Assembly (NCBI GenBank): GCA_031364845.1
Contig: JANLWX010000007.1
Span: forward strand, 64,001-128,000
Source of the DNA: Candidatus Eiseniibacteriota bacterium
GTDB lineage: Bacteria; Eisenbacteria; RBG-16-71-46
Reading direction: 5' to 3'
DNA length: 64,000 nt
The translations under genes were made by a program, and so were the position numbers. The notes under the pieces are model-generated. The model did no database searches. It was not told the DNA's origin and saw nothing but the letters and a program-made list of their open reading frames with translations. Below are positions 1 to 54,635 of the stretch, piece by piece; positions within the stretch are counted from its first letter, which is position 1; every line of letters starts with the position of its first letter.

Positions 1-2660
1 GCGACGAGGCAGCCGAGCAGGCTCACGACCGTAATCGATCCGAGCTGAGCGTTCGCGGGCACCTGTGACAGCGTGAGGATGCCGAATCCGGCCGTCACCG
101 CGAGTGCGTTGACGAGGATGCCGGGTCCGGTCGCGGTGAGCGCGTCGAGCACCGCGGCCCCGTGCGGCTCGCCGCGCCGCGTGGCCTCGCGGTAGCGATG
201 GACCAGGTGAATCGCGAAGTCGACGCCGACGCCCAGCACCATGCTCGCGAACATCGAGGTCGCGACGCCGAGCGGCATGCCCACGACTCCCATCATCGCG
301 AACGTGCCCGCCACCGCGATGCCGGCCGGCGCCATGCACAGGATTCCCCAGCGCATCGAGCGGAACAGGATCGCGCTGACCGCGACGATCCCCAGCAGCG
401 AGGCGAGCAGCGAACCGACCTGCGAGCGCACGATCGCCTGGATCAATGCCTGGCTCACGGCGACGTCGCCGGCGAAATCGATCCGCATCTTCAAAGGTGC
501 CAGATGCTCGCGCTCATAGTCGCGAATCTCCGCCATGAGCTGCCGCGTGTCTCGGTAGTTCGCGTTCTTCAAGAATACTGTGATCAGCGCGTGGTCCAAC
601 TGCGGGGTTGCGACTTCGCCGACGCGCCCGGCGCCGAACACCGTCCGAAGTGCCGACCACAGCCAGCGCACGCGATCGGGATCGCTCGGAATGCCGCGCG
701 ATCCCGGTGACCGATCGCTCATGAGGAATTCAACGGTCGCGATCTGATCCGAGGGCCCGAGAACTCCGCCGACCGAAAGCTGCGACCGGGCGCGCACGAA
801 CTGTTCGAGCGAGTCGAGCGCCATGAGCAGCGACGGAATTGCGAGCCGCTGGGAGAGAAGCGCGAACATGAGGGTGTCGGACGGTTCCGGCATCAACAGG
901 AACTGCGCCGAGCCGTGGTAGAGCGGCGTCGTGACGGCGATGCGGCCGTCGCGGCGTTCGGCGCTTTCGACGACCGAGGACCAGTATGAAGGCTGGCCGA
1001 GTTCCGGCAATCCGGGGCGGCGCGACGCGGAGGATTGCCGGGCGGATCGTGGCAGGACGCTCACCCAGAGCGAGCAGCCGGTGAGCAAGGTGGGGTCGGC
1101 GATGAGGCTGTCCGGGAACAGCGTCACGTTGCCGTGCAGATCCGCAGGAGACAGCGTGCCCTGGATGAGAAGCGGGCGTCCCGTGTCGACCGACAGCAGC
1201 AGCCGATGCGTCCCGAAGAACTGCCGGTTGAAGTACTGCGTCGCCCGATAGAACGCGCTCGAGGGCGCGAACCCGCTGATCCAGCTGTCCTGGATCTCCA
1301 CCTTGCGGATCGCGAGCGGTGAAGCGAGCAGCGCGATCGCCGTGAGCGTCAGGGTGATCACGGGCCGCGCGCCGAGTTTTGCGATCCACGCGACCCATGC
1401 GCGCGGTGCCGCATCGCCCGCGTCACGCGTCCGTCCGGCGAGTGCGCGCGCCGGCAACAGCACCAGCAGTGCCGGGATCACGGTGAGTGTCCACACCATG
1501 CAGAACACGATGCCGGCCGCGGTGAAGATGCCGAACGCGCGGATCGGCGCGAGTGGCGACAGCGCGAATGCGAGAAAGCCGATCGCGGTGGTCCATCCGG
1601 TCGCCATCACCGGCAGGCTCGTCTCGTCGAGCGCCGCGCGAACCGCGGAGGTGATCGGTTCGTTCGGATGCGCGGCGACACGCTGGCGGTACGACGTGAA
1701 CACATGGATCTCGTCCGCGAGCCCCATCGACACGAGGATCACGGGCAGCACCGCCATCGTGAGATACACCGGCACGCCGAGCCAGCCCATGAGTCCGAAC
1801 ACGAACACCAGGCACGCGAGCGCTTCGCTCAACGGAAGCCAGGTCGCGGCAAAGCTCCTGAAGCTGATCAGGAACACGAGCCCCATGAACACGATCGCGA
1901 TCGGGAGCAGGCCGACGTGGCGGGCGATCGCCTCGCGCAGCCGGGCGATGGCGCGGGCGCCGTCGCCGGAAGCAGCGTCGAAGGCATCGCGCTGCGCACG
2001 GTGCTTCGAGATGCCGAGGTCTTCGAGAATGTGGACGCCGAGCAAGGCTTCCGCGACCGGCGCGCCGATCACGGTCACGTCGTGGCCCGCGGTGTCGGCG
2101 GCAGCGATCACCTCTCGGACGCTCGAGACGATCGCCGCGCGATCGGTGCCCGCATCGATCCCGGCGAGGATCGCGGCGGCACGCGCGTCGCGCGCGAGCA
2201 GCGTGCCCGACAGGAGTCCGATGTCGGCGATCTCGCCGCGCAATCGATCCATGTCGGCAGCCGTCGCCGGCAGCGGATCGAGGAGTTCGCGCCGGAGCAG
2301 CGTTCCCGGACGGAAGCGTTCGCTGGGTTCGGTCGCGAGGCTGCGCACGCTCGCCGAATCGATCCCGGGCAATTCCTGGAAGGCGTGCGTGAGGCGCGCG
2401 ATCAATGCCAGAGTGCGCGCGTCGTAGATTCCATCGGGGTTCCGCGAACGGACGACGATCACGAGCGGATCGTGTACGCCGAAAGCCTGACGCACCTGAT
2501 TGTCGAGCAGCACCGCGGGATCGCGCGGCGGGATCAGCGCGTGGCCGTCGGTGCGCAGGTGCAGTCGCAGCATCCCGGGCGCCACCGCTAGCGTGACGGC
2601 GAGCGCGAGAGCGAGGACCAGGCGCGGGCGCCGGATCGCGAAGTCGTGGAGATGCTTCAA
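1..2660 (-). CDS. MMPL/RND-family membrane transporter, 3' end outside window
   Basis: Absent from the ORF track because there is no in-window stop. I translated both ends by hand: TTG at 2660 gives MKHLHDFAIRRPRLVLALALAVTLAVAPGMLRLHLRTDGHALIPPRDP..., and the same frame reads PANAQLGSITVVSLLGCLV at the window edge. Hydrophobic blocks typical of MMPL proteins. Starts 9 nt after the upstream stop. Confidence 0.85.
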   Translation of the reverse strand, partial: MKHLHDFAIRRPRLVLALALAVTLAVAPGMLRLHLRTDGHALIPPRDPAVLLDNQVRQAFGVHDPLVIVVRSRNPDGIYDARTLALIARLTHAFQELPGIDSASVRSLATEPSERFRPGTLLRRELLDPLPATAADMDRLRGEIADIGLLSGTLLARDARAAAILAGIDAGTDRAAIVSSVREVIAAADTAGHDVTVIGAPVAEALLGVHILEDLGISKHRAQRDAFDAASGDGARAIARLREAIARHVGLLPIAIVFMGLVFLISFRSFAATWLPLSEALACLVFVFGLMGWLGVPVYLTMAVLPVILVSMGLADEIHVFTSYRQRVAAHPNEPITSAVRAALDETSLPVMATGWTTAIGFLAFALSPLAPIRAFGIFTAAGIVFCMVWTLTVIPALLVLLPARALAGRTRDAGDAAPRAWVAWIAKLGARPVITLTLTAIALLASPLAIRKVEIQDSWISGFAPSSAFYRATQYFNRQFFGTHRLLLSVDTGRPLLIQGTLSPADLHGNVTLFPDSLIADPTLLTGCSLWVSVLPRSARQSSASRRPGLPELGQPSYWSSVVESAERRDGRIAVTTPLYHGSAQFLLMPEPSDTLMFALLSQRLAIPSLLMALDSLEQFVRARSQLSVGGVLGPSDQIATVEFLMSDRSPGSRGIPSDPDRVRWLWSALRTVFGAGRVGEVATPQLDHALITVFLKNANYRDTRQLMAEIRDYEREHLAPLKMRIDFAGDVAVSQALIQAIVRSQVGSLLASLLGIVAVSAILFRSMRWGILCMAPAGIAVAGTFAMMGVVGMPLGVATSMFASMVLGVGVDFAIHLVHRYREATRRGEPHGAAVLDALTATGPGILVNALAVTAGFGILTLSQVPANAQLGSITVVSLLGCLV

Positions 2661-2669
2661 CGCGCGGCG

Positions 2670-3332
2670 TCAGCCCGAATGGGGGTCGTCGGAGCCGGGT
2701 ACTGCGCCGTTCGCCTGCGGCGGGAGATATCCGTGCTGCGCCATGCGCGCCCCGCTCGCGGCGTGATCCTCGTTCGCCATGGCGTGAACTCCGCCGGCAT
2801 CGCACCAGCGGTTGTAGAAGTTGAACAACGCGCACACGGTGATCGCGTCATAGACCGCCTCCTGCGACCATCCGGCCCGGACGACCGCATCGATATGTTC
2901 GCGATTCAAGTCCCAGGACGCGCGGTTCATCTGCTCGACGAATGTGAACAGCGCGCGGTCGGCCTCGGATATCGGTGCGGTGACGAGGTCCGCGAGCACT
3001 GCATCCACGCGTGCGCGATCGCCGAGCAGCTCCGCCGCGACCGCGGCGTGGCTGTTGAGTCAGAACGGGCAATGGTTGAGCCGCGACGTGTAGGCCGCGA
3101 TCAACTCGCGCAGCCCCGGTTCGAGCGGCGAGGGTCCGCGCATCACCTCGTGGGTGAAGCGCGACAGGTGCTGCGTGCGTTCGGGCTTGTAGGCGAACAG
3201 GAACATGATCTGCGGCACGTCCATGCCCGCGCGCGCGAGGCCCTCGATCACGCCGGCGTATGCGCCGGCCGGCGATTCGTGCAGCGCCGGCAGGAACATC
3301 GCTTCGCCCGTCGCGCCGGGATCGCCCTTCAC
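2670..3332 (-). CDS. AhpD/carboxymuconolactone decarboxylase-like peroxidase, probable selenoprotein (C-P-F-U, UGA at 3060-3062)
   Basis: ORFs 3060..3332 and 2670..3008 share a frame and read through as RELIAAYTSRLNHCPF*LNSHAAVAAELLGD. This is the AhpD E..S..N.CxxC...H motif with TGA at the second Cys. The GTG start overlaps the thioesterase stop (GTGA). 220 aa. Confidence 0.85.
3027..3054 (-). promoter_or_regulatory. Bacterial SECIS-like hairpin downstream of UGA 3060-3062
   Basis: mRNA reads UGA-CUCAA-CAGC-CA-CGCCGC-[GGUC]-GCGGCG-GA-GCUG. The apical loop begins with G, 17 nt after the UGA. Confidence 0.65.
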
Positions 3333-3757
3333 GAGACTTCCTCGTACGCGCGCGCCGCGCGCAGCAGCTCATCGGGAATCGGAGCCGGCACCATGCGGCC
3401 GTTCTCGCGGCGCATGAACGCGACCTGCTGCTCGCCGCGCGCGACCGGTTGTTCGCCCTGCGCCGTCGCGAGCAGATAGTCGAACTTCATCGTGAGCCGG
3501 TTCTGCGCGGCACCGCCGAAGTGCATGCGGACGATCACTTCGTCGAACGGTTCCAGCTCGCGCAGGTATTCGCACGAGCAGCGCGTGGTCACGAGCACGA
3601 GCCCGCCGCCGATCTCTTCGAGCATGTTCGGCGCGTGGTCGCGCAGGAACAACTCGCGGCAGCGGCCCTGCCAGCGGATGAAGTTCACGTAATAGACATT
3701 GCCGAGCAGGTTGGTCTCTTCGAACGCGACCACGTGACGCATTTCATAGCCCGCCAT
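3329..3757 (-). CDS. Enediyne PKS-associated hotdog thioesterase (SgcE10/CalE7/DynE7 family)
   Basis: FEETNLLGNVYYVNFIRWQGRCRELFL signature; 142 aa; overlaps the 3' end of pksE. Confidence 0.93.
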   Translation of the reverse strand: MAGYEMRHVVAFEETNLLGNVYYVNFIRWQGRCRELFLRDHAPNMLEEIGGGLVLVTTRCSCEYLRELEPFDEVIVRMHFGGAAQNRLTMKFDYLLATAQGEQPVARGEQQVAFMRRENGRMVPAPIPDELLRAARAYEEVS

Positions 3758-6700
3758 CGTCCCTCCTTGCGAGCACCGCCATCACCGTGGGTTCCGTTGC
3801 GTCCTGGATCGAGGCGAGGTAGGTCGCGACCCGCAGCGGGCCCGACGCGAGCACCGTCCAGCCGTCGGCGCCGGTCTCGACCAGCACTAGCGGCTGATCG
3901 CCCGCCCAGCCTGCCTTGCGCAGACACTCGTGCGCTGCCCACACCCGCGTGGCGGCCGGACCGAGTTCGCCCGCCGACTCGCTCGCCATCCGTTCCGCGA
4001 GGCCGAAGCGCCGCGGTCCGAGCAGATCGCGCCATTGCAGTTCGGTGCGCGCGATCACACCGGCGACGTCGCAGCCGATCGGCCCGCAGCCGCCGATCGC
4101 GAACGTCAGCGTGCCCGCATGCGATGACGAAACCGATTGCGCGGGCTCGGACGGAAGCGAAGGCTTGCCGTTGGGGTCGCGGTGCACGGCGATCGCGCGG
4201 CCAAAGGCGAGGCTCATCGCGTGTTCGCTGTTGCCTCCGCGGGTGGCGTGGCCGTTCGCCGCGAGCGCCACGCGCACGGCCGAGCCCGGAATCAACTCGG
4301 CGACGCGCCGCTCGACGTAGGGTCCGAGCAGCGGCAGCGGCCACGCGCCGGCGCGCGCGACACCCGGCATCGCCTTGAGTTCGAGTCCTTCCCAGCGTTC
4401 GCGCACGCGGCCGCCGGCGTCCGCGATCTCGAGGTCGTAGACGAACCGATCCCCGAGCCGCGACCGCTCGCGCGCGTGCACGGTCCACGGCGCGCCCGCG
4501 CCCAGATCGCCGGGGACGATGCGCGCGACCGCGGTCGGCAGCACCGTCATGTGGGGGATGCACGCCTGGATGCCGTGGATCGCGGCGTCGCGCGCGCCGG
4601 GATCGCCGAGCACGAGGTCGGCGGGCACGTAAGGCCCGAACCACTCGGGCCGGGTGTCGGTCGCGATCTCGACCACGCATTCGGTCGCTCGCAGCACACG
4701 GTAGTTCAGCACGCGCTGGAAGCGGCCGCTCTGGAACAGCATGCCGCCGTAGAGATCGCGTTCCGGATCGAGCGGCAGCGGTCCGTTCAAATCGTCACGA
4801 TCGGCGAGGTGTTCCAGGCCCGCGGGCCGCGCGCCGAACACGCAGCGCGCCTCGAAGTGATCGACCGCGAAATCCGATTCGGACGAACGCAGCACGACGT
4901 CGACGCTGCCGTCCTCTCGCATGAGCGCCGCCACGCGCAGCGTGCACTCACCACCCGCGGGCACGGTGATCGGGCGATGGAACGCGACGCGCTCGAACAC
5001 CGGAGCATTTGATTCGCCGGCGAGCGTCATCGCGACCTGTGCGATCGCTTCGAGCCCCATCACGGCCGGCAGCAGCATCACGCCGCGATAGACGTGGTCG
5101 CGCAGATAGGGATCGCTCTCGGGCGAGAGATCGGTGTCGACCACCAGCTCGATGCCGGGATAGTGGACCGCGATCCGCTCGATGAACCGCCGCAGCGGCA
5201 TCGGCGGCTGCTCGAGTGCCAGCGTCGGTAACTCGCCGATGCGTCCGGCGACGATCACCGACGAGCCCGGCAACGGTGCGCGCAGCAGGCGCGACAGCAT
5301 CCCGATGCCGGCCTCTGGCGCGATCGGTGTGATGCCTTCGCGCATCAGCGCATCCAACCGCCCGAGTCGCTCGCCCATGCCGGTGCCGGACCACACCGAC
5401 CACTCCACCGACAGGCAGCGGCAGGCAGCGTGCTCGGTCTGGAAGCGCTCGACGAAGCGCGTGAGCCATTCGTTCGCGAGGCCGTAGTCCGCTTCGCCGC
5501 GTAGTCCGGTGCGCGCGATGATCGAGCCGAACGTGACGAACAGTTTGAGCGTGCCGGGATCGATCGCCGCGAGCACGTTGCGCGCGCCGTCGAGTTTCGT
5601 GCGCAGCGTGCGCTCGACGATGGCTTCAGTGAGCGCGCTCAGCGGGCGCGGTTCGTTGATGCCGGCGCCGTGCAGCACCGCGACGACCGGGCCGAGACGC
5701 TGCTCGATCGAGCGCACTGCGTCGCGCACGGCTTCCGCGTCGGTGACGTCGGCCGCGGCGTAGTACGTCGTCACACCCGCGGCCGCGAAGCGCGCGAGGT
5801 TCGCCGCCAGCGCGGGATCGCTGCCGGCATCGGAGCGCCCGATCAGGCCGAGCTTCACGCCGTATTCGCGTGCGAGTGCCAGCGCGCATTCGGCCGCGAT
5901 GCCTTTGCCGCCGCCGGTGACGAGCATCACGTCGTCCTTCGCGAGCGGCGGAGCGTGCACGGCGGCCGTTTCCGTGAGCGGCGTCATCACCGGTTCGTGG
6001 CGCCGCCCATCGCGGTCGTAGCGCGCCTCGTGATAACCGAGTGCCGCGTTCGCTTCGGCGACGATCCAGGCGACGGCGTCTTTGTGGTCGTACGGCACAT
6101 CCACCACGCACGTCGTGGTGTCGCGCGATTCGAGGTGCAGGCTGCGCGCGAACGCGCCGCCGCCGCCGCCCTGCTGCACGACCACGAAGCGCGCGCCGCG
6201 GTCCGCCATCGCGAGCCGCGCGCCTTCGAGCAGCCGCGCGATGTCGCGCGCATCAGGCTCCGCGGCGAGGCACACGACGACTCCGCGGCCGGTGCCCTCG
6301 GCGTGCAGTGCGCGTTCGAGGTCCGCCGCGATTGGATGCTGAGCGTCGGCGAGCACGCGCCATTCCGCGGGGCCGGCGGGCTTCGGACGTGACGGGCGCG
6401 GGCGTTCGACTTCGCGCACGACGAACGGACGCACCCAGGGACCGACGCCTTCGGCGATGCGGCGCGGCGCTTTCGGCGCGCCGCCGGTGCGCAGCTCGGC
6501 CAGCGCGATCGCGAGTTCGGCGACCGTGGCTCCGGCATAGCTCGCGGGATCCGCGGGCGCGGGCAAGCCGAGGCGCCGCGCGCCGTCGACTGCCAGTTGC
6601 CCGACGGTGATCGAGTTCAGGTGCAGGTCACCGAGCAGGCGATCATCGTCACCGACCGCGGATACCGGCAGCTCGACCTGTTCGGCGACGAGCCGCCGCA

Positions 6701-9608
6701 CGACTTCGAGCACAGCCGCGGGGTCGTCGGCGGACTCGGCGCCGTTGCCGTGCGCGGCGCCGTTCGTGGCCGCCGGTTCGTGATCGCGATCGACGGTTGC
6801 CGTGGCGCCGCTCGTCGTGTGCGCCGCTACGGCGTGCGTGCCTGCGTCCGAAGGCAACGGCGCCTGCTCGCACGGATTCGCGAAGAAGCTCAGCGGGCGA
6901 TCGAGGTCGAACGCGCGCGCGAAACGCCCGGCGAACAACGGCTGCGGATCGACCGCGCCGCCGAGCGCCCACACCGCGCCCGTCGCGCGCAGCAGGCCGG
7001 CGATCGATTCGCTGCCGGCGTCGAGTGCGATCGCGGGGGCGGGGCCGAGATCCGCGACCAGTCCGCTCAGCACGTGCCCTGGACCGACCTCGATCCACAA
7101 ATCCACATTGCGCGCATGGCTCACGGCTTCCACGAAGCGCACCGGATGCGTGACCTGGCGACACAGCAGCTCTCGCACGTCGTCGTCGCGCCCGAGCGGA
7201 GTACCGCTCACGGTCGAGAGCACGCGGCGCTCGACCGGTTCGAATCGTTCGCGATCGAGCTGCGCGCGCAGCGCCGGTTCGGCCGCGGCCACGAGCGGCG
7301 AGTGGAACGCATGCGATACCGCGAGCGCGGTCGCCGGAATGCTCCGCGCCCGCGCGATCTCGACCACCGCGGTGACGGCGTTCGCTTCACCCGCGATCAC
7401 GGTGCGGCGCGGGCCGTTCAAGCCCGCGATCACCACCGCATGTCCCGCGATCAGAGTGCCGACTTCTTCAGCCGTCGCGGCGAGGCTCGCCATGGTTCCG
7501 TTCGAAGCCGCGAGATCCGCCATCGCGCGTCCGCGCGCGGCGGCGATCCGCACCAGCGCGTCCGCGTCGAACACCGAGGCCCAGTGGCATGCCGTGATCT
7601 CGCCGAGGCTGTGGCCCACGGCCACCTCGGCGCACACGCCGAGCTCATCGAGCAGCCGAAGTGCTGCGAGTGAATTCGTGACGATCGCGGGCTGCGCGAT
7701 CTGGGTCGCGGTCGTGTCGGTGGTCGTTGCCGCTTCCGCCGCGACACGCGTTGCGACCGCGTCGTACAAAGGCCGCAGCGACTCGAACCGCCGCGCCCAC
7801 AGACCGCCTGCGACGTTCGAGGGCGCGCCCTGGCCCGTGAACAGAAATCCGATGCGCGGTGACGTGCCGCCCAGTGCGCCCAGGCTGATGCCGCGCGCGA
7901 CATCGAGCCGTACCTCGACGCCTTCGGCGAGCCACGCATCCAGCACACCGAGGCGTTCGTCGAGTTCGCCTGGCGTCGAGGCGACCACCGCCGCGCGTCG
8001 CGCATCGGCGCCGGCCGTTGCCTTCGCCGCCAGCGAGTTCTGCAACGTGCACGCGACGTCCGCCATCTCGGCCAGGGAGAGCCGGCCGGCCAGCGCGCGA
8101 AGCCGCGCGATCTGATCGCGGAGCGCCTGCGTGTCGGCGCCCTCCAAGAGAAACAACTCGGCATCCTGCGGACTGGAGATCAGCGCTCGCTCATCGTCCG
8201 TGAGCGCCGTGCGGCGTTCCGGGGTCGCGCTCTCGATCACGACGTGCGTGTCGATCCCGCCGAAGCCCATCGCGCTCACCGCGGCGCGCAGCGGCATGCC
8301 GGACGGCCACAACTCTCCCGAGCGCGGCGTTCTGAGATCGGCACGGTCGCGCACGAGACGCGGGTGCGGATCGCGCTGTCCCGCGAGCGGCGGCAGCACC
8401 TGCGCGCGCACCGACATCGTCGCCTTGATCAGCCCCGCCACGCCGGCCGCGGCCTTGGTGTGGCCCATGTTCGCCTTGATCGATCCGAGTGCGGCGGCGG
8501 GTGCGGTGCCGGTGCCGCGCGCGCGCAGGATCACATCCAACTCGGTGAGGTCGCCGACTTCGGTTCCGGTCCCGTGTCCTTCGAAGTAGCCGATCGTTTC
8601 CGCGCCGAAGCCCGCGCGGCGATAGGCGCGCTCGAGTGCGAGCAACTGGCCCGAAGCTTCGGGCCGCGTCATGCCGCCGCTGCCGTCCGAAGCCACGCCC
8701 CAGCCGCGGATCACACCGTGGATGCGCCGTCCTTCGGCGCGCGCCTGATCGGCGCGCATCAGCACCACGAAACCGCAGCCTTCGCCGGGCCAGAAGCCGG
8801 TGGCGCGGGCGTCGTAGACGCGCATGTCCTCGCGCGCGAGCACGCCGACGCGCGAGAACCCGACCAGTTCGAACGGATCGAGGCTCAGATCGACGCCGCC
8901 CGCGAGTGCGAGGTCGAGATCGCCCGCCGCGAGCGCCGAGCATGCGGTGGTGACCGCGAGCAGCGACGAGGCGCACGCGCCATCGACGGTGTAGCCGCCG
9001 CCGTTCAGGTCAAAGTGATTGCAGATGCGTCCGGCGATCGTGTTCGACAATCCGCCGGCAAGCGACTCGCCGCCGACGGCCGGGAACGGAGCCTTGTAGC
9101 GCGTCTCGAGCGAGGCGAGGAACGCCTGGCGGCGCTCGGGCGCCCAGTCGCTCTCCGCGAGTGCGGCGTCGACCACGCGCCGCACGTAGGGCCAGCGCAA
9201 ACGCAGCGTGTTCGCGCGCGAGAATTCGCCGGTCAGCGTGTTGCCGACCAGCACTCCGGTCATCGCGCGCGGCAGGCCGTGTCCGTCGGCGAAGCCCGCG
9301 TCGGCCAGCGCCTGATCGGCGACGTCGAGCGCCAGCCAGTGCGCGAGGTCGACCTCGCGATACGTGGCGCCGGCGGTGCGGAAGCGCACGCGATCGAACT
9401 CGTAGCCTTCGATCACCGCGGCCTGCGTGGTCGTCACCGAGTCCGACAATCCGGCGTCCGCGTGATAGTCCTCGATCCGCAGGCGCTCGGCCGGCATGCG
9501 GCGGAACGCGCGGCGCTGCGCGAGCGCGTTCTCCCACAGTTCGGCGGGGGAGCGCGCATCGGGGTAGCGGCAGCCCATGCCGATGATCGCGATCGCGTGA
9601 TCAGGCAT
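3744..9608 (-). CDS. pksE: Iterative type I enediyne polyketide synthase (KS-AT-ACP-KR-DH-PPTase)
   Basis: 1954 aa. KS: DGACASSL, EGHGTGT, GHTKAAAG. AT: GHSLG and HAFH. Internal ACP: DLHLNSITVGQL. KR: TGGGKGIA and DYGLANE. DH: HVYRGVMLLP and DAAIHGIQAC. C-terminal PPTase: SSSHA, GCD, RVWAAHECLRKAG. This domain order is diagnostic of PKSE. Confidence 0.95.
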   Translation of the reverse strand: MPDHAIAIIGMGCRYPDARSPAELWENALAQRRAFRRMPAERLRIEDYHADAGLSDSVTTTQAAVIEGYEFDRVRFRTAGATYREVDLAHWLALDVADQALADAGFADGHGLPRAMTGVLVGNTLTGEFSRANTLRLRWPYVRRVVDAALAESDWAPERRQAFLASLETRYKAPFPAVGGESLAGGLSNTIAGRICNHFDLNGGGYTVDGACASSLLAVTTACSALAAGDLDLALAGGVDLSLDPFELVGFSRVGVLAREDMRVYDARATGFWPGEGCGFVVLMRADQARAEGRRIHGVIRGWGVASDGSGGMTRPEASGQLLALERAYRRAGFGAETIGYFEGHGTGTEVGDLTELDVILRARGTGTAPAAALGSIKANMGHTKAAAGVAGLIKATMSVRAQVLPPLAGQRDPHPRLVRDRADLRTPRSGELWPSGMPLRAAVSAMGFGGIDTHVVIESATPERRTALTDDERALISSPQDAELFLLEGADTQALRDQIARLRALAGRLSLAEMADVACTLQNSLAAKATAGADARRAAVVASTPGELDERLGVLDAWLAEGVEVRLDVARGISLGALGGTSPRIGFLFTGQGAPSNVAGGLWARRFESLRPLYDAVATRVAAEAATTTDTTATQIAQPAIVTNSLAALRLLDELGVCAEVAVGHSLGEITACHWASVFDADALVRIAAARGRAMADLAASNGTMASLAATAEEVGTLIAGHAVVIAGLNGPRRTVIAGEANAVTAVVEIARARSIPATALAVSHAFHSPLVAAAEPALRAQLDRERFEPVERRVLSTVSGTPLGRDDDVRELLCRQVTHPVRFVEAVSHARNVDLWIEVGPGHVLSGLVADLGPAPAIALDAGSESIAGLLRATGAVWALGGAVDPQPLFAGRFARAFDLDRPLSFFANPCEQAPLPSDAGTHAVAAHTTSGATATVDRDHEPAATNGAAHGNGAESADDPAAVLEVVRRLVAEQVELPVSAVGDDDRLLGDLHLNSITVGQLAVDGARRLGLPAPADPASYAGATVAELAIALAELRTGGAPKAPRRIAEGVGPWVRPFVVREVERPRPSRPKPAGPAEWRVLADAQHPIAADLERALHAEGTGRGVVVCLAAEPDARDIARLLEGARLAMADRGARFVVVQQGGGGGAFARSLHLESRDTTTCVVDVPYDHKDAVAWIVAEANAALGYHEARYDRDGRRHEPVMTPLTETAAVHAPPLAKDDVMLVTGGGKGIAAECALALAREYGVKLGLIGRSDAGSDPALAANLARFAAAGVTTYYAAADVTDAEAVRDAVRSIEQRLGPVVAVLHGAGINEPRPLSALTEAIVERTLRTKLDGARNVLAAIDPGTLKLFVTFGSIIARTGLRGEADYGLANEWLTRFVERFQTEHAACRCLSVEWSVWSGTGMGERLGRLDALMREGITPIAPEAGIGMLSRLLRAPLPGSSVIVAGRIGELPTLALEQPPMPLRRFIERIAVHYPGIELVVDTDLSPESDPYLRDHVYRGVMLLPAVMGLEAIAQVAMTLAGESNAPVFERVAFHRPITVPAGGECTLRVAALMREDGSVDVVLRSSESDFAVDHFEARCVFGARPAGLEHLADRDDLNGPLPLDPERDLYGGMLFQSGRFQRVLNYRVLRATECVVEIATDTRPEWFGPYVPADLVLGDPGARDAAIHGIQACIPHMTVLPTAVARIVPGDLGAGAPWTVHARERSRLGDRFVYDLEIADAGGRVRERWEGLELKAMPGVARAGAWPLPLLGPYVERRVAELIPGSAVRVALAANGHATRGGNSEHAMSLAFGRAIAVHRDPNGKPSLPSEPAQSVSSSHAGTLTFAIGGCGPIGCDVAGVIARTELQWRDLLGPRRFGLAERMASESAGELGPAATRVWAAHECLRKAGWAGDQPLVLVETGADGWTVLASGPLRVATYLASIQDATEPTVMAVLARRDDGGL

Positions 9609-10554
9609 GGGCGAACTCGCGCTCTTGAGTGAAGTGGTTCTGGATGCGCTGGCGCCACACTTCGAAGGCCGGAGCGTCGCCTTCGCTCTCGAGATTCTGG
9701 CGCGCGCGCTCGGTGATCGCGGCGGCCTCGGGAGCGGTCATTCCGCACAGGATCTCGCACGCGAGGTCTGTGCCGGGCGCGGGATTCCCCGCGCGCACGC
9801 GGGCCTGCGCGGCGAACGCCGCACCCTGCGCGACTTCGGGGAGAAATGTGCCGCACGCCGCACGCAGTGCCGTCAATCCGGTGCGATCGATGCCCCCCGC
9901 GTATGTGGCGGCGAGGCCCGCGCCCGCCCACAGATCGCTGCGGCGCGCGGGATCGAAGCGCGCGATCGTGCGCGCGATGCGCGAGGGCTCGGCGCCTTCG
10001 ACGAACCACAGACTGCGTCCGAGGCCCTGATCGAACACACGCTGCGCATGGGCGCTCAACTGCTCCGGTCGCCGCTGTTCCGTGATGGTTCGCGGCCAAT
10101 GGAAGTATCCGTCGTGGAAGCCGAGGCCGTCGATCACGAGCCAGCGCAGCACCGGATCGTCCTCGTTTTTCATGAAGCGGGCGACGTTGCCGCCGAGCCG
10201 CGCCGCGGCCCAGCCGGCACCGATGTACACCATGTAGGCGTGGGGCGCGCCCGGGCCTTTGAGCAGCGCGCGCCACTGGCTGTCCCGCCACGGCATTACG
10301 GTGTCGAGCAGCGCGAGGCCCATCGCGGCACCTTCCCAGGCGAAGCCCGCCATCTCGCGCTCCACCCCCGCGAGGCGCTCGGGCAGCCGGTCGGCGCGCG
10401 TGACATCGAGGGCGGCGTGGTATCCGTCGACGAAGGTTCCGCCGATGGCTTCGAGGCGCTGGCGGACCGCGGGCGCGGCCCCGCGAAAACCGCGGCGCTC
10501 GAAGCGAGTCTCAGCGGCGGAAATGCCGAACACGAGCCTGCGAAGCGCGCGCAC
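9601..10554 (-). CDS. unbL: DUF1702 / enediyne cassette protein E3 (UnbL)
   Basis: Motifs GFAWEGAAMGL, YIGAGWA, WLVIDGLGFHDGYF, FDQGLGRSLWF, DLWAGAGLAATYAGG. GTG at 10554 with GGAGG 9 nt upstream; 8-nt overlap with pksE. Confidence 0.9.
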   Translation of the reverse strand: MRALRRLVFGISAAETRFERRGFRGAAPAVRQRLEAIGGTFVDGYHAALDVTRADRLPERLAGVEREMAGFAWEGAAMGLALLDTVMPWRDSQWRALLKGPGAPHAYMVYIGAGWAAARLGGNVARFMKNEDDPVLRWLVIDGLGFHDGYFHWPRTITEQRRPEQLSAHAQRVFDQGLGRSLWFVEGAEPSRIARTIARFDPARRSDLWAGAGLAATYAGGIDRTGLTALRAACGTFLPEVAQGAAFAAQARVRAGNPAPGTDLACEILCGMTAPEAAAITERARQNLESEGDAPAFEVWRQRIQNHFTQEREFAHA

Positions 10555-10826
10555 GAGGGAACGCCTCCATGATCGAACGTGCCCGGTGAGTGTGTCCCGC
10601 GCGTGATTCAAGACAGACGGCGGCGGTGTTTGGGGTCGAAGCGGCTGGCGGCCCAGGCACGAGTGTGCTTCGCACGAAGTTTCCGCCCCCATGCGCATGA
10701 ATGTCAAGGATTTCCACGTTTCAAGCCGCCCCCGGTTGGCGTAAGCTGTCGCTGCCTCGCCTAGCATGAACCGGGCGGACCTGTAGCCCGGTCCGGGCCT
10801 GGGGCTCGCCGCGCTCCGGAGCAACC

Positions 10827-12790
10827 ATGAACGCATTCGTCCTGCGCACGATCGTGATGGCCGTGATGCTCGCCGCGGGATCGTTCTGGATCCGGCACAA
10901 CGACCGGCCGGTCGTGGAAGCGGGCGTTCGGTTCGAGGAGATCTCCGAGCGCGCCGGCTGCCGCAACGTGCACACGAAAGTCGAGCTGTCGCCACGTTTC
11001 GCGAACATCATGCCGTGGCTGGCTTCGGTCGGCGCGGCCGTTACCGCGGCGGACTACGATGGCGACGGTTGGATCGACCTCTACCTCACGAACTCCGGCC
11101 GCGGCGACGCCAATCGGCTGTTCCGCAATCGCGGCGACGGGACCTTCGAAGAGCGCGCGGCCCAGAGCGGTGTGGCGTGCGGCAACGCCGAAGGCGCGTG
11201 CATGCACGCGGTGTTCGGCGACATCGACAACGATGGCGATCCGGACCTCTACGTCGCCAAGTGGGCCGCCGAGAACCAGCTGTTCGAAAACCAGGGCGAC
11301 GGAACGTTTCGCGACGTGACCGCGCGCGCCGGAGTCGGGCACTGGGGCTACGCGAACTCGGCGACGTTCGTCGACTTCGATCGCGACGGGCGGCTGGATC
11401 TGCTGGTCGGCAACTATTTCGCAGAGCAGGTCATCGATCCGCGCACCGGTGCGCTCGCGCGCTCCGATCTGTGGAATCCGGTTTCGAGCCGCGTGATGCA
11501 CTCGACGTTCACGCACGCCGACAACGGCGGCCGCACGCTGCTCTATCGCAACCGCGGCGACGGCACGTTCGAGGACGTTGCGGAAGCGTCGGGACTCGAG
11601 TTCCGCGGATGGACGCTCGCGGTCGGAGCGGCCGATCTCGACAACGACGGCTGGCCCGACCTCTATCTCGCGAACGACTTCGGCCCCGACGAGCTGTACT
11701 TCAGCACCGGCAGCACGGAGCAGCCGCCGCGCTTCCGGCGTGTCATCGACACTTCCGGCCATCCGGGGATCGGCGACGACTGGTGAAGGGCATGAACGTC
11801 GACTTCGGCGATGTCGATGGCAACGGCTATCTCGACATCTACGTCACCAACATCTTCGAGCGGCGCTACAAGAGTGACGAAGGCAACATGCTGTGGCTCA
11901 ACTTCGCGCGACCGGGAACGGCAGGGGAGCGGCGGTTCGTGAACGTCGGGCTCGAGAGCGACGTCTACGACGGCGGCTGGGGCTGGGGTGCCAAGTTCCT
12001 CGACGCGAACGACGACGGGCTGCTCGACATCCTGGCACTCAACGGCTTCGTCAAAGGCGATCCCGACCACACCTACTGGTATGCGCTGCAGGAGATGGTG
12101 ACGCAGATGAAGAACAACTCGGCCGATGCCGCGGACTGGCCGGCGATGGGGCCGCGCGATCTGTCGGGCGGCCAGTCGAGTCGGCTATTTCTACAACAGG
12201 CGAAGGCCGCGCGGCCTTCCGGCCGGCGCCCGCCTGGTGATGGCGGTCCGCGCTTCGCCGAGCTGGCGACTTCGGCGGGCATCGACGATCGCGAGAACGG
12301 CCGCGGCGTCGCGGTGCTCGACTTCGACAACGACGGGGCACTCGACCTGTGCATCGCGAACCAGGGTGGACCGTCGCTGCTTTATCGCAACCGGCTTCAG
12401 CGCACCGCGACCGGTCCGCACTGGATCGGCCTTGCGCTGCAAGGTCGCCCGGATCTCAAGGGCTCGCTCGGCGCGGGTGCGCAGGTCAGCACCGCCGGAG
12501 CGATCGGCGCGCGCGCGGTGCTCGTGAGCGGCGATCGCACGCAGACGCTCGAAGTCTCAGGCGGCACCGGCTTCGCATCGCAAAGCGATCCGCGCCTTCA
12601 CTTCGGCATCGGCGAGCGCACTCGCGCCGACCTGCTGACCGTGCGCTGGCCGAGCGGACGCGTGCAGACCTTCTCGGGCGCCGAGCTCGACGCATGCCTC
12701 GGCGGCTACGCGCGGCTTGTCGAAGGCGGGGCACTCGAGCCGCGCGCCGGATCGCCGGCGGGCACCGCGGTGGCGAGCGTGACCCGATGA
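10827..12790 (+). pseudogene. unbV: ASPIC/UnbV (E4, CRTAC1-like FG-GAP repeat) protein interrupted by a 1-nt frameshift at ~11784-11787 (true lesion or assembly error)
   Basis: The N-half (10827..11786) has DxDxDG repeats and ends GIGDDW*. The C-half continues in another frame as KGMNVDFGDVDGNG...GWGWG...AIGARA...GGTGFASQSDPRLHFGIG...VRWPSG (ASPIC/UnbV domain). Adding one base gives a single 654-aa ORF. Confidence 0.85.
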
Positions 12791-13806
12791 GCACGCCGCC
12801 ACGTTCACGCAGCCGCTCGGGCTTCGTATGGACGGTGCTCGCGATCGTGGGAGTCGCGGCGATCGCCGTCGTCGCCGTGCGGCGCGGCGGACTGCTCGAC
12901 CTTCCCAAAGTTCCCGACGGCGTGACCGCGGAGTCCGCGGGCCTCGCAAATCTCGATCAACTCCGGCAGCGGGCCGCGGAACTGGAAGCCGCGCAACGTG
13001 GCGACTCCGACGCAGCGCTGGTGGCGGCGAGCACCGGGCTCAAGGCGGTGGCCGATGGTGAGGTTGGCCCCGGGCTCGATTCACTACGCCACGCGCTGCG
13101 CCTCGCTCCCGACGACCTCGTGCTCGGCAATGCATATCGAATGGCAGTGCTGAAGCTGCGCCGCGCGGCGATGAAGGACGCAGCCGCACGCGCGGCGCTG
13201 GCCGGGCGTCTGCCGCCGGCGATCGAGCACGAGCCGATCGCATTTCTGGAGACGCTGCGGCGCGAGCATCCGAGCCGCGAGGTCACGCTGCAGCTCGCAC
13301 TCGCATGGGTCGACGAGTTGATGCTGTTCGGAGCGCTCGAGATCAAGGCACCGGCGAGTGTCGAGTCGGTGACGCTTTTGAGCGGCATCCTCGAGCAGGA
13401 GCCGTCGTACGTTCCCGCCCTGTTCGGGCGCGGGCTCAACTATCTGCACCGGCCTTCGCGGCTGGTGTGGCCGGAGTCAAAGAAGATGGCGCCCGACGCT
13501 GCGAGCCGCGACATCGGGATGTGCGTGGCGATCGGCCGCAAGATCGGCGGCGGTTCGCCGCAACTGGTCGGCACGCTCGCGCTCACACTCGGCGACGCCT
13601 ACGCCCGCGAAGGGCGCTTCGAGAACGCGCGCTCGTGGTGGCAGATCGCGCAGAACAGCGGAGGCGGAGCCGAACTCGGAGCCGCGGCGCGCCGGCGCTT
13701 CACGTGGGGCGATCGCGACGTGCCGGACCGCCTCGAGCAGGAGCTGGAGACGCGCATGTCGGACCTCGACCATCCGCTTTCGGATCTGGCGGTGATATGG
13801 CAGTGA
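12787..13806 (+). CDS. Membrane-anchored TPR-like protein of unknown function
   Basis: ATGA overlap with unbV; N-terminal TM segment (FVWTVLAIVGVAAIAVVAV); TPR-like helices such as ALRLAPDD and LGDAYAREGRFENARSWWQ. Confidence 0.75.
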   Translation: MSTPPRSRSRSGFVWTVLAIVGVAAIAVVAVRRGGLLDLPKVPDGVTAESAGLANLDQLRQRAAELEAAQRGDSDAALVAASTGLKAVADGEVGPGLDSLRHALRLAPDDLVLGNAYRMAVLKLRRAAMKDAAARAALAGRLPPAIEHEPIAFLETLRREHPSREVTLQLALAWVDELMLFGALEIKAPASVESVTLLSGILEQEPSYVPALFGRGLNYLHRPSRLVWPESKKMAPDAASRDIGMCVAIGRKIGGGSPQLVGTLALTLGDAYAREGRFENARSWWQIAQNSGGGAELGAAARRRFTWGDRDVPDRLEQELETRMSDLDHPLSDLAVIWQ

Positions 13807-14720
13807 GCGCGGCGACTTCCACGGCGGCGCCGGTGCGCGTCGTCATCCCGACGCTCAAGGATCCGCGCGTGATGATCGCGTTGGCACTCACGGTGTGGAC
13901 CACGTTCGGGCAGACGTTCCTCTATTTCGACCGCGATCTGAGCCAGATCGCCGTGGCATTGGTCGCCGGGTGCGTGCTCGACATGCTGTTCGCGTTCGTC
14001 CTGCTGCGCCAGGTTCTGGTTCCGATCAGCGCCTACATCACCGGACTCTCGATCGCGATCCTGCTCGAGAGCTACGACTGGCGTGTGTTCGCGATCGCCT
14101 CGGCGTGGGGGATCGCGTCCAAGTATCTGCTGCGCGCGGGCGACCGGCACTTCTTCAACCCGTCCAACTTCGGCATCGTCGCGGCATTGGTACTGATGCA
14201 GGGCGTCGCGACCGTGGCACCCGGATCGCAGTGGGGAGGGGATTACCGCGTCGCGTTCCTGATCCTCGCGCTCGGCATGATGATGATGCGCCGCTTGAAG
14301 CGGCTCGACCTCGCGTTCGCTTGGCTCGGCGGCTACGTGGTGATGAGTCTTCTGCGCGTGGCGCTCGGGCAGGGCGGGCTGATCTTCGCGCTCGGTCCTT
14401 TGACCGGTGCCGAGTTCGCGCTGTTCACGTTCTCGATGCTGCCCGATCCCAAGACCAGCCCGCCGACTTCGCGCGGGCGCATCGCGTGGGGCCTGACGAT
14501 CGCGGTGATCGACGGCGTCCTGCGCCTGCTCGAGGTGCGCTACTCGATGTTCTACGCGCTGTTCGCGATGTGCGCGTTGCTGCCGGCGTTCCACGCGGTG
14601 GCGGCGGCGCGCGGCGTGCGCGAATCCGATCCGTGGCGCACGGTGGTCGCGGTGTGGGGGCGCCCGCGCGGTGGACCTGCGGCGGACACTGCTCGACGCG
14701 ACGTGCGCCGGCCCGACTAG
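13797..14720 (+). CDS. unbU: Enediyne cassette protein E5 (UnbU; RnfD/NqrB-like membrane protein)
   Basis: Motifs KDPR, SAYITGLSIAILL, ASKYLLR...HFFNPSNFGI, FTFSMLPDPKTSP; polytopic membrane protein; start at ATG 13797 or GTG 13803. Confidence 0.85.
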   Translation: MAVSAATSTAAPVRVVIPTLKDPRVMIALALTVWTTFGQTFLYFDRDLSQIAVALVAGCVLDMLFAFVLLRQVLVPISAYITGLSIAILLESYDWRVFAIASAWGIASKYLLRAGDRHFFNPSNFGIVAALVLMQGVATVAPGSQWGGDYRVAFLILALGMMMMRRLKRLDLAFAWLGGYVVMSLLRVALGQGGLIFALGPLTGAEFALFTFSMLPDPKTSPPTSRGRIAWGLTIAVIDGVLRLLEVRYSMFYALFAMCALLPAFHAVAAARGVRESDPWRTVVAVWGRPRGGPAADTARRDVRRPD

Positions 14721-16795: not shown

Positions 16796-17031
16796 GAGAC
16801 CTCCATCGCGCGGTGGATGTTGCCGGACCGTCTCGATCATCGCAGGGCCGGCACACCCCGGGCAACGGAAAGCTGGGGAGTTCTCGCCCCGCGCGCCCCG
16901 GCGCTGATACACTTGCGGCTGGCGGATGCGCATCCCAATCGGACACCTGAGGGTACGCGTCCGCCCCCGATCGTGTCGGCGCCTCCCGCATCCCGGCCCC
17001 GCACCCACTTCAAGGATGTTGGAGGCCATCG

Positions 17032-19785: not shown

Positions 19786-19841
19786 ACAGGGTGCCGCGAA
19801 TGTCGGATTTTGCTCCAACAGGCAGGAACGTGGTTCACATT

Positions 19842-19922
19842 CTTCAACTTGCCTCCGAGAATGGCGAGCGCGAGCTCCACCGGATTGTTGTAGCCGTGCC
19901 CGCGGAACACGAATCGCGGCAT
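19842..19922 (-). pseudogene. Truncated HxlR-family (winged HTH) regulator remnant
   Basis: Strong RBS GAGGAGG followed by MPRFVFRGHGYNNPVELALAILGGKLK, resembling the HxlR N-terminal Y..PVE.AL..IGGKWK. The resemblance stops after ~27 codons. Confidence 0.6.
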
Positions 19923-19938
19923 TGCGAACCCCTCCTCA

Positions 19939-19979
19939 ACTCACCCGGGGGTGAGTCTCTAACAAAATAGTGCGTTCTT
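19939..19979. promoter_or_regulatory. Candidate operator: palindrome ACTCACCC-GG-GGGTGAGT plus a degenerate second site CTAAC-N6-GTGCG
   Basis: Perfect 8-2-8 inverted repeat at 19939-19956, between the divergent HxlR remnant and the DJ-1 operon. Confidence 0.45.
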
Positions 19980-20099
19980 GATGAATGCTCCGAGGATCGC
20001 GACAGTGCTCCGGATGAATACATCGTGTGAGCAGGCCATCGCCCACGACGATGGAAGGCCATCGTACTGCAGCCACGTCCCGCCTCCTCGGAGAAGATC

Positions 20100-20837
20100 A
20101 TGTCCGCGAATATCCAGCCCTACGGCCGCGCGAAGAAGATTCTGTGCGTGGTTGCCAACCCATCCATCTCGACCACCCTCGGCTGGCCCGTAGGCTTCTG
20201 GGCCTCTGAACTGACCCACGCTTGGTACGAGTTCACCGAGGCCCGGTACGAAGTGACCATCGCGAGCCCCACGGGCGGCAAGGTCGAAATCGATGCGCTC
20301 AGCGATCCCTCCGATCCGAGCGGTTACTCCGCCCACGACCTGTTGAGCTTGGGCTTCCTTGCCAGTCCGAGCCACGCGGCCCTGCTCGCGGACACGCCGG
20401 CGATTGGCGCCCTGGACGCCGCAGGGTTCGACGCGCTGTATATCGCCGGAGGCCAGTCGCCGATGTTCACGTTTCGCGGCGACGCGGCGCTTCAGAAACT
20501 GATCCAGACGTTCTACGAAGAGGGCAAGGTGACGGCGGTGGTGTGCCACGGCACCGCGGCGTTGCTTGATGTGAGGCTGTCCGACGGCTCGTTGTTGATC
20601 GCGGGCCGGCACATGACGGGTTTCGCGAACAGCGAGGAGAACTTCGCCGATCAGGCCGTCGGACGCACGGTGATGCCGTATCGCATCGAAGACGAAGCAA
20701 GACGAGCGGGCGCCAACTTCGTCACCGCACCCGCCTTCCGTCCGCACGCGGTGCGCGACGGCCACCTGATCACCGGCCAGCAGCAGTATTCGGGACGCGC
20801 GGCAGCCGAACTCGTGCTGCAGGCGCTGGGGAGATGA
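20100..20837 (+). CDS. DJ-1/PfpI (type 1 glutamine amidotransferase-like) protein
   Basis: GFWASEL, IAGGQSPM, AVVCHG (catalytic Cys) and LITGQQ motifs. Confidence 0.9.
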   Translation: MSANIQPYGRAKKILCVVANPSISTTLGWPVGFWASELTHAWYEFTEARYEVTIASPTGGKVEIDALSDPSDPSGYSAHDLLSLGFLASPSHAALLADTPAIGALDAAGFDALYIAGGQSPMFTFRGDAALQKLIQTFYEEGKVTAVVCHGTAALLDVRLSDGSLLIAGRHMTGFANSEENFADQAVGRTVMPYRIEDEARRAGANFVTAPAFRPHAVRDGHLITGQQQYSGRAAAELVLQALGR

Positions 20838-21505: not shown

Positions 21506-21512
21506 TTCCGCC

Positions 21513-37070: not shown

Positions 37071-37071
37071 C

Positions 37072-38286: not shown

Positions 38287-38494
38287 ATCCGGGACATCCC
38301 CCGGGGGAAACCCCGCTTTCAAAGGCGCCCGCTGGGTGGTCCGGCCCCGTTTCGATCGACGATCCCCGGCGAAGCGCGCTGAAGGCGGTGTGAGCGGGCA
38401 TCGATCTTCATGTCCCGCAACAGGTTTCGCAGGCTGATCGAAACCCGACCCCGGGGGGGTCGGGGGCACGGATATGGCGTTATGACGTTCGTAT

Positions 38495-54490: not shown

Positions 54491-54635
54491 TTCGGGAACC
54501 TATCGCACTGGGTGGCGTCCCGCCCTCGGGATCGGCGAGAATGCGCCCGTTCGAATGGACGACGACCTTCGCATTCGCGGCGTGTGAGACACCAGTCTCA
54601 CGCGCCGCGAATGCCACCTATCGGAGCTCCCCTTG

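Follow-up and report, generated by a model that had tools for sequence, protein, structure and literature searches.

We analysed a 64,000-nucleotide stretch of DNA (the window; bases 64001-128000 of the 151,394-bp contig C85) from a genome bin of 4.6 Mb in 233 contigs with an estimated completeness of 97%. We think it rather probable that the left end of this window holds an intact eight-gene cluster, built on a minimal enediyne-type polyketide cassette, whose product is a polyene or polyyne handled at the cell envelope. Judged from its gene content, the end product is most likely a simple linear polyene or polyyne and not a nine- or ten-membered enediyne chromophore, since no genes for cyclisation or decoration were found. 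The first-pass annotation had described a five-gene minimal cassette with almost no tailoring genes. The five families, namely the enediyne-type polyketide synthase (PKSE), the thioesterase, UnbL, UnbV and UnbU, do lie where it placed them, as Pfam, PDB and tblastn-type matches confirmed, and classical tailoring genes were indeed not found. The cluster, however, comprises eight genes. Three conserved accessory genes (1..2660, 2670..3332 and 12787..13806), one of them encoding a redox selenoprotein, had been passed over.

A passage of PMC9992847 (2023) describes the minimal cassette as a PKSE plus thioesterase, joined by three further conserved genes whose function is unknown, and the PKSE-bound polyene is named as the common intermediate in a passage of PMC9682884. 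By its sequence, the window belongs to this class: it carries the synthase architecture, a CalE7-type thioesterase and the three further families E3 (UnbL), E4 (UnbV) and E5 (UnbU) beside the synthase. The genes are arranged in two divergent groups. On the minus strand, UnbL, PKSE, thioesterase, selenoprotein and, as the last gene, an RND pump follow each other with overlaps of 8 nt (unbL/PKSE), 14 nt (PKSE/thioesterase) and 4 nt (thioesterase/selenoprotein) and a gap of 9 nt before the pump. On the plus strand, UnbV is followed by a gene that we call X and by UnbU; the start codon of X is interlocked with the unbV stop (ATGA), and the last 10 nt of X are shared with the beginning of unbU. This spacing points to two operons. 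Between the two divergent groups (10400..10900), a scan for consensus promoters and terminators gave no match. GC content was 62-72% throughout, and the real genes had the usual high third-position GC, the signal that guided our choice among the many overlapping open reading frames (ORFs).

The PKSE (3744..9608, minus strand, 1954 aa) is a type I polyketide synthase of the iterative kind with the domain order KS-AT-ACP-KR-DH-PPTase, as read from Pfam matches, motifs and the fold of its PPTase domain. Pfam recognised the KS, AT, KR and DH domains and, in a single weak match, the PP-binding domain, and the catalytic motifs VDGACASS, HGTGT, GHSLG and HxxxGxxxxP were found. Its best 120 homologues were 52-77% identical, 1918-2038 aa long and composed of the same domains. 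A tblastn search of plasmids returned 49 records, 46 of them from Streptomyces; the top 20 listed were 47.3-48.5% identical over 99% of the query, with the plasmid PKSE of S. clavuligerus at 48.5%. An assignment as PfaA-type polyunsaturated fatty acid synthase was rejected: TIGR02813 scored 444.7 bits against a cut-off of 1010.1 and matched KS-AT only, and the PP-binding match was single, with no tandem ACPs.

The last 205 aa of the PKSE had no match in Pfam, including its ACPS family. A profile of six orthologues searched against PDB had Sfp as its top sequence match (E 0.24), and the motifs GKP, SH, G-x-D-x-E and W-x-x-K-E lined up between the two. An AlphaFold (AF2) model of this tail, computed from a 44-row alignment, reached a predicted local confidence (pLDDT) of 93.3, and in a Foldseek search with the model all listed matches to rank 34 were 4'-phosphopantetheinyl transferases (PPTases). 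The tail thus has an Sfp-type PPTase fold, which completes the KS-AT-ACP-KR-DH-PPTase architecture that defines a PKSE.

The other cassette proteins were assigned by similarity as well. The thioesterase (3329..3757, minus strand, 142 aa), whose gene overlaps the PKSE stop, is of the hotdog fold and the enediyne type (E10/E7 family), with PDB matches to CalE7 (2w3x, 6.3e-41), to SgcE10, the 'ACP-polyene thioesterase' (4i4j, 4.3e-39), and to DynE7 (2xfl, 1e-33). UnbL/E3 (9601..~10578, minus strand) is a DUF1702 protein (PF08012, 2e-117, residues 148-455 of a long ORF) and is 36% identical to the DUF1702 protein of Streptomyces sp. NBC_00887 (E 6e-47). The longest unbL ORF runs to 10995 and the frame-specific GC signal stops near 10550; since homology and codon bias begin only near residue 140-148, the true start is probably a GTG at 10578. 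A scan of genome contigs with UnbL gave two loci only, in part because two of the six search peptides came from the spurious N-terminal extension. UnbU/E5 (13797..14720, plus strand, 307 aa) is a polytopic membrane protein, distantly RnfD/NqrB-like (PF03116, 1.3e-11) and 32% identical to the 'enediyne biosynthesis protein' (E5) of the same Streptomyces strain (E 8e-33).

UnbV/E4 (10827..12790, plus strand) is by Pfam a FG-GAP beta-propeller of the CRTAC1/ASPIC family with an N-terminal membrane anchor (FG-GAP repeats and UnbV_ASPIC, PF07593, 2.6e-20). In the assembly its gene is split by a one-base frameshift at 11784-11786: the frame is closed by a stop after ...GIGDDW (11786) and continues, shifted by one base, at KGMNVDFGDVD. 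When Logan contigs of the sequencing runs X1-X4 were aligned to the window, an extra G behind 11784 was present in a contig of X1 (3367 nt, depth 12.9, one other difference) and in a contig of X2 (565 nt, depth 3.89). With this G the protein reads ...DDW-V-KGMN... and unbV is one frame. The runs X3 and X4 did not cover position 11784 and speak neither for nor against the extra base. As X1 may be the source sample itself and X2 comes from a further sample of that study, the two do not count as fully independent support. Of 27 metagenome UnbV orthologues with a complete N-terminus, 25 are single ORFs of 635-706 aa, the exceptions being L065 with an internal stop and L086 with a frame change. Because of the extra G in contigs of two runs and these 25 intact orthologues, the most likely cause of the break is a homopolymer error of the assembly, and the repair of unbV that the first-pass annotation had foreseen before expression is not needed. 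An intact orthologue from another genome of the phylum (G160) is 28% identical over its full length to the CRTAC1-family E4 of Streptomyces sp. NBC_00887 (E 5e-47).

The same region drew many short contigs of all four runs (window 11100..12340), which match the FG-GAP repeats of unbV at 90-95% and then diverge. The joints and loose ends that they produce were not taken for rearrangements, since these contigs stem from other FG-GAP genes whose sequence resembles the repeats. Related FG-GAP genes are numerous in the sediment communities, and estimates of read depth could be misled by matches of this kind.

Gene X (12787..13806, plus strand) encodes a 339-aa, membrane-anchored, TPR-like helical protein. 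Apart from its N-terminal anchor and a weak TPR match it had no Pfam family. Homologues fall into at least 322 clusters, and the best 120 listed are 47-87% identical over the full length. An AF2 model (pLDDT 87.4) is a helical-repeat solenoid; Foldseek returned generic TPR proteins only (E ~1e-3, query TM score at most 0.44), so that no function can be inferred for X from its fold. Its gene neighbourhood was more telling. A profile search for X found 61 metagenome loci; of those that could be tested, 46 of 48 had unbV upstream of X, and 50 of 51 had unbU downstream. X, UnbV and UnbU are therefore a conserved operon.

A physical pairing of UnbV with X is supported, but not proven, by a complex prediction and by a gene fusion. 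The complex was predicted for the pair from G160, with anchors removed, own alignments and three controls; its score, the median of three runs, was 0.68, while the best control stood at 0.00. This level was reached by 116 of 157 solved complexes and by 2 of 215 mismatched pairs, counts that are rough since own alignments were used. The runs shared at least 62% of their contacts, the pLDDT of the partner was at least 86, and the predicted contact residues coincided with invariant columns of both alignments. In G160 numbering, the predicted interface comprises X residues 186-193 and 227-234 and UnbV residues 227-229, 312-319, 346-351 and 418-430. In G042, another genome of the phylum, UnbV is fused to an X-like C-terminal TPR domain (L018:1981-4563, 860 aa). 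The only UnbU-like gene found in that genome sits 3.9 Mb from the fusion.

Between the pump and the thioesterase gene, two short ORFs in the same frame are separated by a TGA (3060..3062). Read through, they form a 220-aa protein (2670..3332, minus strand) of the AhpD-like/carboxymuconolactone decarboxylase (CMD) type, a 'peroxidase-related' selenoprotein with the motif C-P-F-U within N-H-C-P-F-U-L-N-S-H (PF02627, 2.7e-11; TIGR01926 'peroxidase-related enzyme', 94.6 bits against a cut-off of 81.8). An AhpD-like gene with a UGA lies beside unbU or the PKSE in 7 of the 61 related loci, and the TGA occupies the same aligned column in 6 of 7. In a library-wide search, 11 of 13 full-length homologues had cysteine at the column of the selenocysteine (Sec), and all eight of the chosen fragments ended just before it. 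A SECIS-like hairpin (3027..3054, minus strand) begins 6 nt after the UGA. The 18 nt CACGCCGCGGTCGCGGCG, forming an inner 6-bp stem (GCCGCG/CGCGGC) with a GGUC loop 12 nt after the UGA, are identical in the window and in five other loci, although synonymous sites next to them differ. In the distant L045, the GGUC loop is kept on another stem, of 7 bp. The fold energy of the hairpin (z 0.26) is not significant alone. An Rfam scan of 1..15000 with E values up to 1 gave no match, hence no catalogued SECIS or riboswitch lies there. The genome has tRNA-Sec and SelB above cut-off. The UGA/cysteine column, the hairpin and the Sec machinery identify the gene, as far as sequence goes, as an AhpD-like C-x-x-U selenoprotein.

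Such proteins are a known family, described in a passage on the Sargasso Sea selenoproteome (PMC1088965), and the matching NCBIfam name is 'alkylhydroperoxidase-related (seleno)protein'. The window protein has the CMD/AhpD fold family and the C-x-x-U redox motif in common with them, as well as the pairing of Sec with Cys in homologues; unlike the known members, its gene is translationally packed inside a polyketide operon. Among the 12 best-ranked of 4,537 papers from a literature search combining enediyne and selenium terms none contained both, a weak negative. A 367-aa CMD-family protein with a C-P-Y-C motif is also encoded on the Streptomyces sp. NBC_00887 plasmid (L089:2095-3198), about 6 kb upstream of E4, the first cassette gene there, with five genes between. 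It was rejected as an orthologue of the window selenoprotein, as the C-P-x-C motif region alone aligns (E 0.006).

The last gene of the minus-strand operon encodes an RND lipid exporter of the MMPL/HAE3 type (1..2660, minus strand; C85:63928-66660, 910 aa), which extends 72 bases past the left end of the window. It matched PF03176 (MMPL) at 2.6e-27 (96 bits against 20.5), reached 194 bits with TIGR00921 (HAE3; cut-off 351.9) and stayed far below the cut-offs of the HpnN models. Its best solved relative was the hopanoid transporter HpnN of Burkholderia (5khn, 4.1e-11). Both belong to the lipid-moving branch of the RND family, but confident similarity covers only one stretch of about 150 residues. 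The pump could serve as export-based protection.

No tailoring region was found around the cluster. The survey was a Pfam scan of 22 likely ORFs in about the nearest 31 kb of the left flank (within C85:24001-64000), of the cluster and of 32 ORFs to the right. It found no second DUF1702, flavin reductase, P450, epoxide hydrolase or pathway for peripheral moieties, and thus no large tailoring region to the left that would have undone the first-pass annotation's proposal of a minimal cluster. General Pfam and NCBIfam scans showed no family suggestive of an apoprotein or of self-resistance; no search aimed at known apoproteins or resistance proteins was made. Left of the pump follow a secreted FlgD_ig-tailed protein, an unknown ORF, HSP20, Lon, unknowns, a GFO-type oxidoreductase, glycosyltransferases, an outer-membrane barrel and the SUF system. 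The right flank bore out the earlier description of secreted hydrolases and housekeeping genes, with an alpha/beta hydrolase that has a weak, sub-threshold match to a type IX secretion system (T9SS) sorting tail, an M1 peptidase, DJ-1, GH1, an MFS transporter, cytochrome oxidase and enolase. Secreted proteins of the neighbourhood (window 14717..17038 on the minus and 17032..19785 on the plus strand; L004:18151-19851) end in FlgD_ig or T9SS-type sorting domains, and FlgD_ig-tailed proteins also occur in or beside the cassettes of G047 (L016:11019-13310) and G042 (L018:4938-6503). Further to the right, at 36297..39490 and 25246..26472, several well-biased ORFs of 149-404 aa matched neither Pfam nor NCBIfam.

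The host, an uncultured sediment bacterium, is a diderm and probably Eisenbacteria-like, in agreement with the first-pass annotation's view of a diderm that is no actinomycete. Of the markers cited for that view, the PorV/PorQ-family barrel (54633..55583, 107 bits against a cut-off of 90) and two sigma-54 activators stood, while the lpxH call did not fully: the protein at 55605..56360 is LpxH-like (E 1e-25) but below the equivalog cut-off. The window also encodes an Omp85-family barrel, and LpxC was found elsewhere in the genome. Among the best 120 relatives of the enolase, four names give an organism, three of them Candidatus Eisenbacteria and one Limnocylindria. Ten further runs (X5-X14) from sediment, soil and freshwater shared 0.05-0.07 of the words and were uninformative on habitat.

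Comparison with the one same-genus genome examined (G133, 93% complete) delimited the cluster. G133 has neither DUF1702 nor the cluster; Lon (85% DNA identity), HSP20 (74%) and GH1 (77%) lie there on one contig, with a spacer of 523 bp. The segment that is extra here spans about 24.4 kb (C85 ~61073..85512, window -2927..21512) and contains the eight genes and five neighbours, namely two FlgD_ig-tailed secreted proteins, a hydrolase, an M1 peptidase and DJ-1. Its ends showed no direct or inverted repeats of at least 12 nt, the G133 spacer held no remnants, and no flanking integrase or tRNA was seen. In the absence of repeats and remnants there is no evidence for a mobile element. That the two flanks adjoin each other in G133 speaks against a chimera at the cluster and favours a gain or loss specific to the lineage.

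Within the phylum, represented by 206 species genomes including that of the window (G000), DUF1702 exceeded the cut-off in five, again including the window's own. The other four cassettes have PKSEs that are 46-54% identical to the present one, and all are flanked by housekeeping genes. G047 has UnbL-UnbV-UnbU-PKSE-TE (TE, the thioesterase) and a divergent MMPL pump, without X. In G042 the order is UnbV-X fusion, pump, UnbL, PKSE, TE. G160 and G161 have UnbL-PKSE-TE only at that locus, between housekeeping genes. X was found in three of the 206 genomes, all three with a cassette; none of the other 203, two of which bear a cassette, had it. Among 401 sampled Acidobacteriota genomes X occurred once (G571), too few for a test of co-occurrence. 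A 20.9-kb locus from a metagenome-assembled Acidobacteriota genome (L007) has DUF1702, then UnbV, UnbU and two to three more UnbV paralogues, an Unb set without PKSE; its surroundings show weak KS-like matches only and a nearby MMPL gene.

These observations suggest how the cluster might work. PKSE and thioesterase of characterised systems release the linear heptaene 1,3,5,7,9,11,13-pentadecaheptaene. In the present host, the PKSE, primed by its own PPTase domain, would build an ACP-bound conjugated polyene from malonyl units, and the thioesterase would release it, so that synthesis and release take place in the cytoplasm. UnbL, a periplasm-facing UnbV-X pair anchored in the inner membrane and the polytopic UnbU might then process the polyene further, possibly to a polyyne; this topology of UnbV and X is suggested only by positively charged N-termini followed by one hydrophobic helix. 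The selenoprotein might reduce peroxides or otherwise protect or mature the oxidation-prone chain, and the RND pump would move the hydrophobic product from the inner membrane to the envelope or the medium. The title of a paper by Gui et al. (2024) suggests that the cassette itself may reach a diiodotetrayne, and the product could accordingly be more reactive than a simple polyene.

A more far-reaching interpretation, which we offer tentatively and regard as possible rather than likely, is that the 'enediyne' cassette of diderms is a two-compartment machine for envelope lipids. E3-E5 would have served membrane polyene chemistry first and would later have been recruited by actinomycetes for warheads. 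Cytoplasmic UnbL-PKSE-TE would make the polyene, a periplasm-facing UnbV-X complex and UnbU would remodel it at the inner membrane, possibly to a polyyne, and the selenoprotein would guard or mature the chain before the HpnN-like pump delivers it to the outer membrane.

Several observations weigh against a single eight-gene pathway to an envelope polyene or polyyne. The unbV-X-unbU trio is accompanied by PKSE, UnbL or thioesterase in only 6 of the 23 loci that extend 3 kb or more on one outer side, and in only two of the seven that extend 7 kb or more on both. Being often apart from a PKSE, it may serve other synthases too. In G160 the trio (62-73% identical) lies on a contig other than that of UnbL-PKSE-TE, and in the acidobacterial G571 a DUF1702 gene sits some 2 kb upstream of X, but the present query retrieved no CalE7-like thioesterase. 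Neither helper of the synthase operon is universal. The four other cassette loci of the phylum yielded no AhpD-like gene; a MMPL homologue stands beside the cassette in three of the five phylum genomes (G000, G047 and G042, those of G047 and G042 being 41-43% identical), a recurrence that speaks for the exporter. The G-x-D-x-E motif of the PPTase domain, whose Glu binds the metal in Sfp, has Ala in its place in the window (4059..4070, PKSE residues ~1845-1850, G-C-D-V-A-G) and in the closest homologue (P0005), against Glu in 40 and Gln in two of the 44 aligned PKSEs. As the one other PPTase found in the genome, on C114, is of the AcpS type, priming of the ACP could be impaired. Finally, all 14 runs listed for the stretch are DNA and none is on record as RNA.

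The distribution of the trio could also mean that unbV-X-unbU is a general envelope module that stands beside the synthase by chance, the polyketide part being UnbL-PKSE-TE, together with selenoprotein and pump, alone. The five loci, out of the seven with long flanks on both sides, in which the trio occurs without PKSE, UnbL and thioesterase would fit this, as would the unlinked halves in G160 and the UnbL-PKSE-TE sets of G160 and G161 among housekeeping genes. Against a chance neighbourhood speak the restriction of X in the phylum to cassette-bearing genomes (3 of 3, against none of the other 203) and the recurrence of the divergent order unbL | unbV-X-unbU in L033, L035, L037 and L073 and of a PKSE downstream in L075 and L078. 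E4 and E5 are moreover fixed members of actinomycete cassettes, as seen in the Streptomyces cluster and in a passage of PMC10760148. We consider this explanation doubtful.

It seems to us quite unlikely that the cluster makes a true cyclic enediyne core, undecorated and unstable, that would cycloaromatise, as is reported for the cryptic clavulynes of Streptomyces clavuligerus, and act as a short-lived toxin. In favour of it, none of the five cassette genes is missing or broken, an exporter is at hand, and the S. clavuligerus plasmid PKSE is among the closest plasmid matches; that organism makes an unstable nine-membered enediyne according to a passage of PMC13626215. Against this stands the bareness of the locus: second DUF1702, flavin reductase, P450, epoxide hydrolase, apoprotein and resistance gene, all or most of which accompany the Streptomyces cassette, were all missing from our scans, and the other four cassettes of the phylum are equally bare, two of them being reduced to UnbL-PKSE-TE at the locus.

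That the cluster is decaying or silent and makes nothing we hold to be very improbable. The frameshift at 11784 of the window and the Glu-to-Ala exchange in the PPTase domain could be read in this sense. But the frameshift is absent from the contigs of two runs, the remaining genes have open frames and a strong third-position GC bias, and the selenoprotein gene retains its UGA and hairpin. The Ala is shared with a full-length, 77%-identical homologue and is thus older than any recent decay. An artefact of assembly or binning, with a cluster from some other organism such as an actinomycete, is scarcely credible: against the 233-contig bin with its 3.7% (3.66%) estimated contamination and the lack of the 24-kb segment in G133 stand the position of the cluster in the middle of a 151-kb contig, GC and codon bias that match the flanks, the adjacency of these flanks in G133 (74-85% and 77% DNA identity), the four other cassettes of the phylum with PKSEs 46-54% identical, and PKSE relatives that at 52-77% are nearer than any Streptomyces match (at most 48.5%), so that the contig, with its Eisenbacteria-like enolase, appears neither chimeric nor actinobacterial.

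A linear polyene or polyyne pathway is our preferred reading, and the comparison with the warhead cassettes of actinomycetes (C-1027, calicheamicin, dynemicin) shows what is shared and what is not. With the plasmid cluster of Streptomyces sp. NBC_00887 as yardstick, all five families are common to both with full-length similarity, and the PKSEs have the same KS-AT-ACP-KR-DH-PPTase architecture. The gene order differs, two divergent operons in the window against E4-E5-E-E10-...-E3 in Streptomyces. In the window, unlike Streptomyces, X separates E4 from E5, the synthase operon includes a selenoprotein gene and the RND pump, and the host is a diderm. Flavin reductase, second DUF1702, P450, NRPS (nonribosomal peptide synthetase) and more stand beside the NBC_00887 cassette, whereas none of these, nor sugar or resistance genes, appeared in the scans of the window cluster and its flanks.

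The presence of the cassette outside actinomycetes is not new, and the rarity implied by the first-pass annotation was overstated. According to the passages of PMC10308959 that concern them, 160 of 210 metagenome enediyne-type KS domains were linked to non-actinobacterial phyla, and PKSE-type synthases with no known product occur in Proteobacteria, Cyanobacteria, Bacteroidetes, Chloroflexi and others. A passage of PMC4480864 assigns 54 of the 61 enediyne clusters then known to Actinomycetales, and a legend there flags 'non-actinomycetales' and 'cassettes only' entries. The best 120 PKSE homologues likewise bear, where named by JGI, always the name 'enediyne polyketide synthase', and some NCBI names among them point to Gemmataceae, Pirellulales, Acidobacteriota, Pyrinomonadaceae and the cyanobacterium Heteroscytonema. 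The clusters of PMC10308959 and PMC4480864 represent the same phenomenon as the present one, but those passages treat KS domains and counts, without accessory genes, X, selenoprotein, pump or an Eisenbacteria-like host. We found no description of a conserved unbV-X-unbU operon with a predicted UnbV-X pair, or of a C-x-x-U selenoprotein in such clusters.

Two features make the cluster easy to misread: a probable single-base assembly error falsely marks unbV as a pseudogene, and the UGA will cause automated gene calling to break the selenoprotein in two. Enediynes rank with nature's most potent cytotoxins, and the three genes found with every enediyne synthase (E3, E4 and E5) were in 2023 still listed as having no known function (PMC9992847). 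The present cluster would be a stripped-down natural version, with five core genes, no decoration pathway found and three conserved helpers. These helpers, a predicted UnbV-binding membrane partner, a selenium redox protein and a lipid-type exporter, may point to the site and the needs of the chemistry. The cluster is a practical target for heterologous expression, by which one could approach both what orphan non-actinomycete cassettes make and which roles E3-E5 play. If the two-compartment interpretation is true, these eight genes would be the simplest natural system in which to learn what E3-E5 do.

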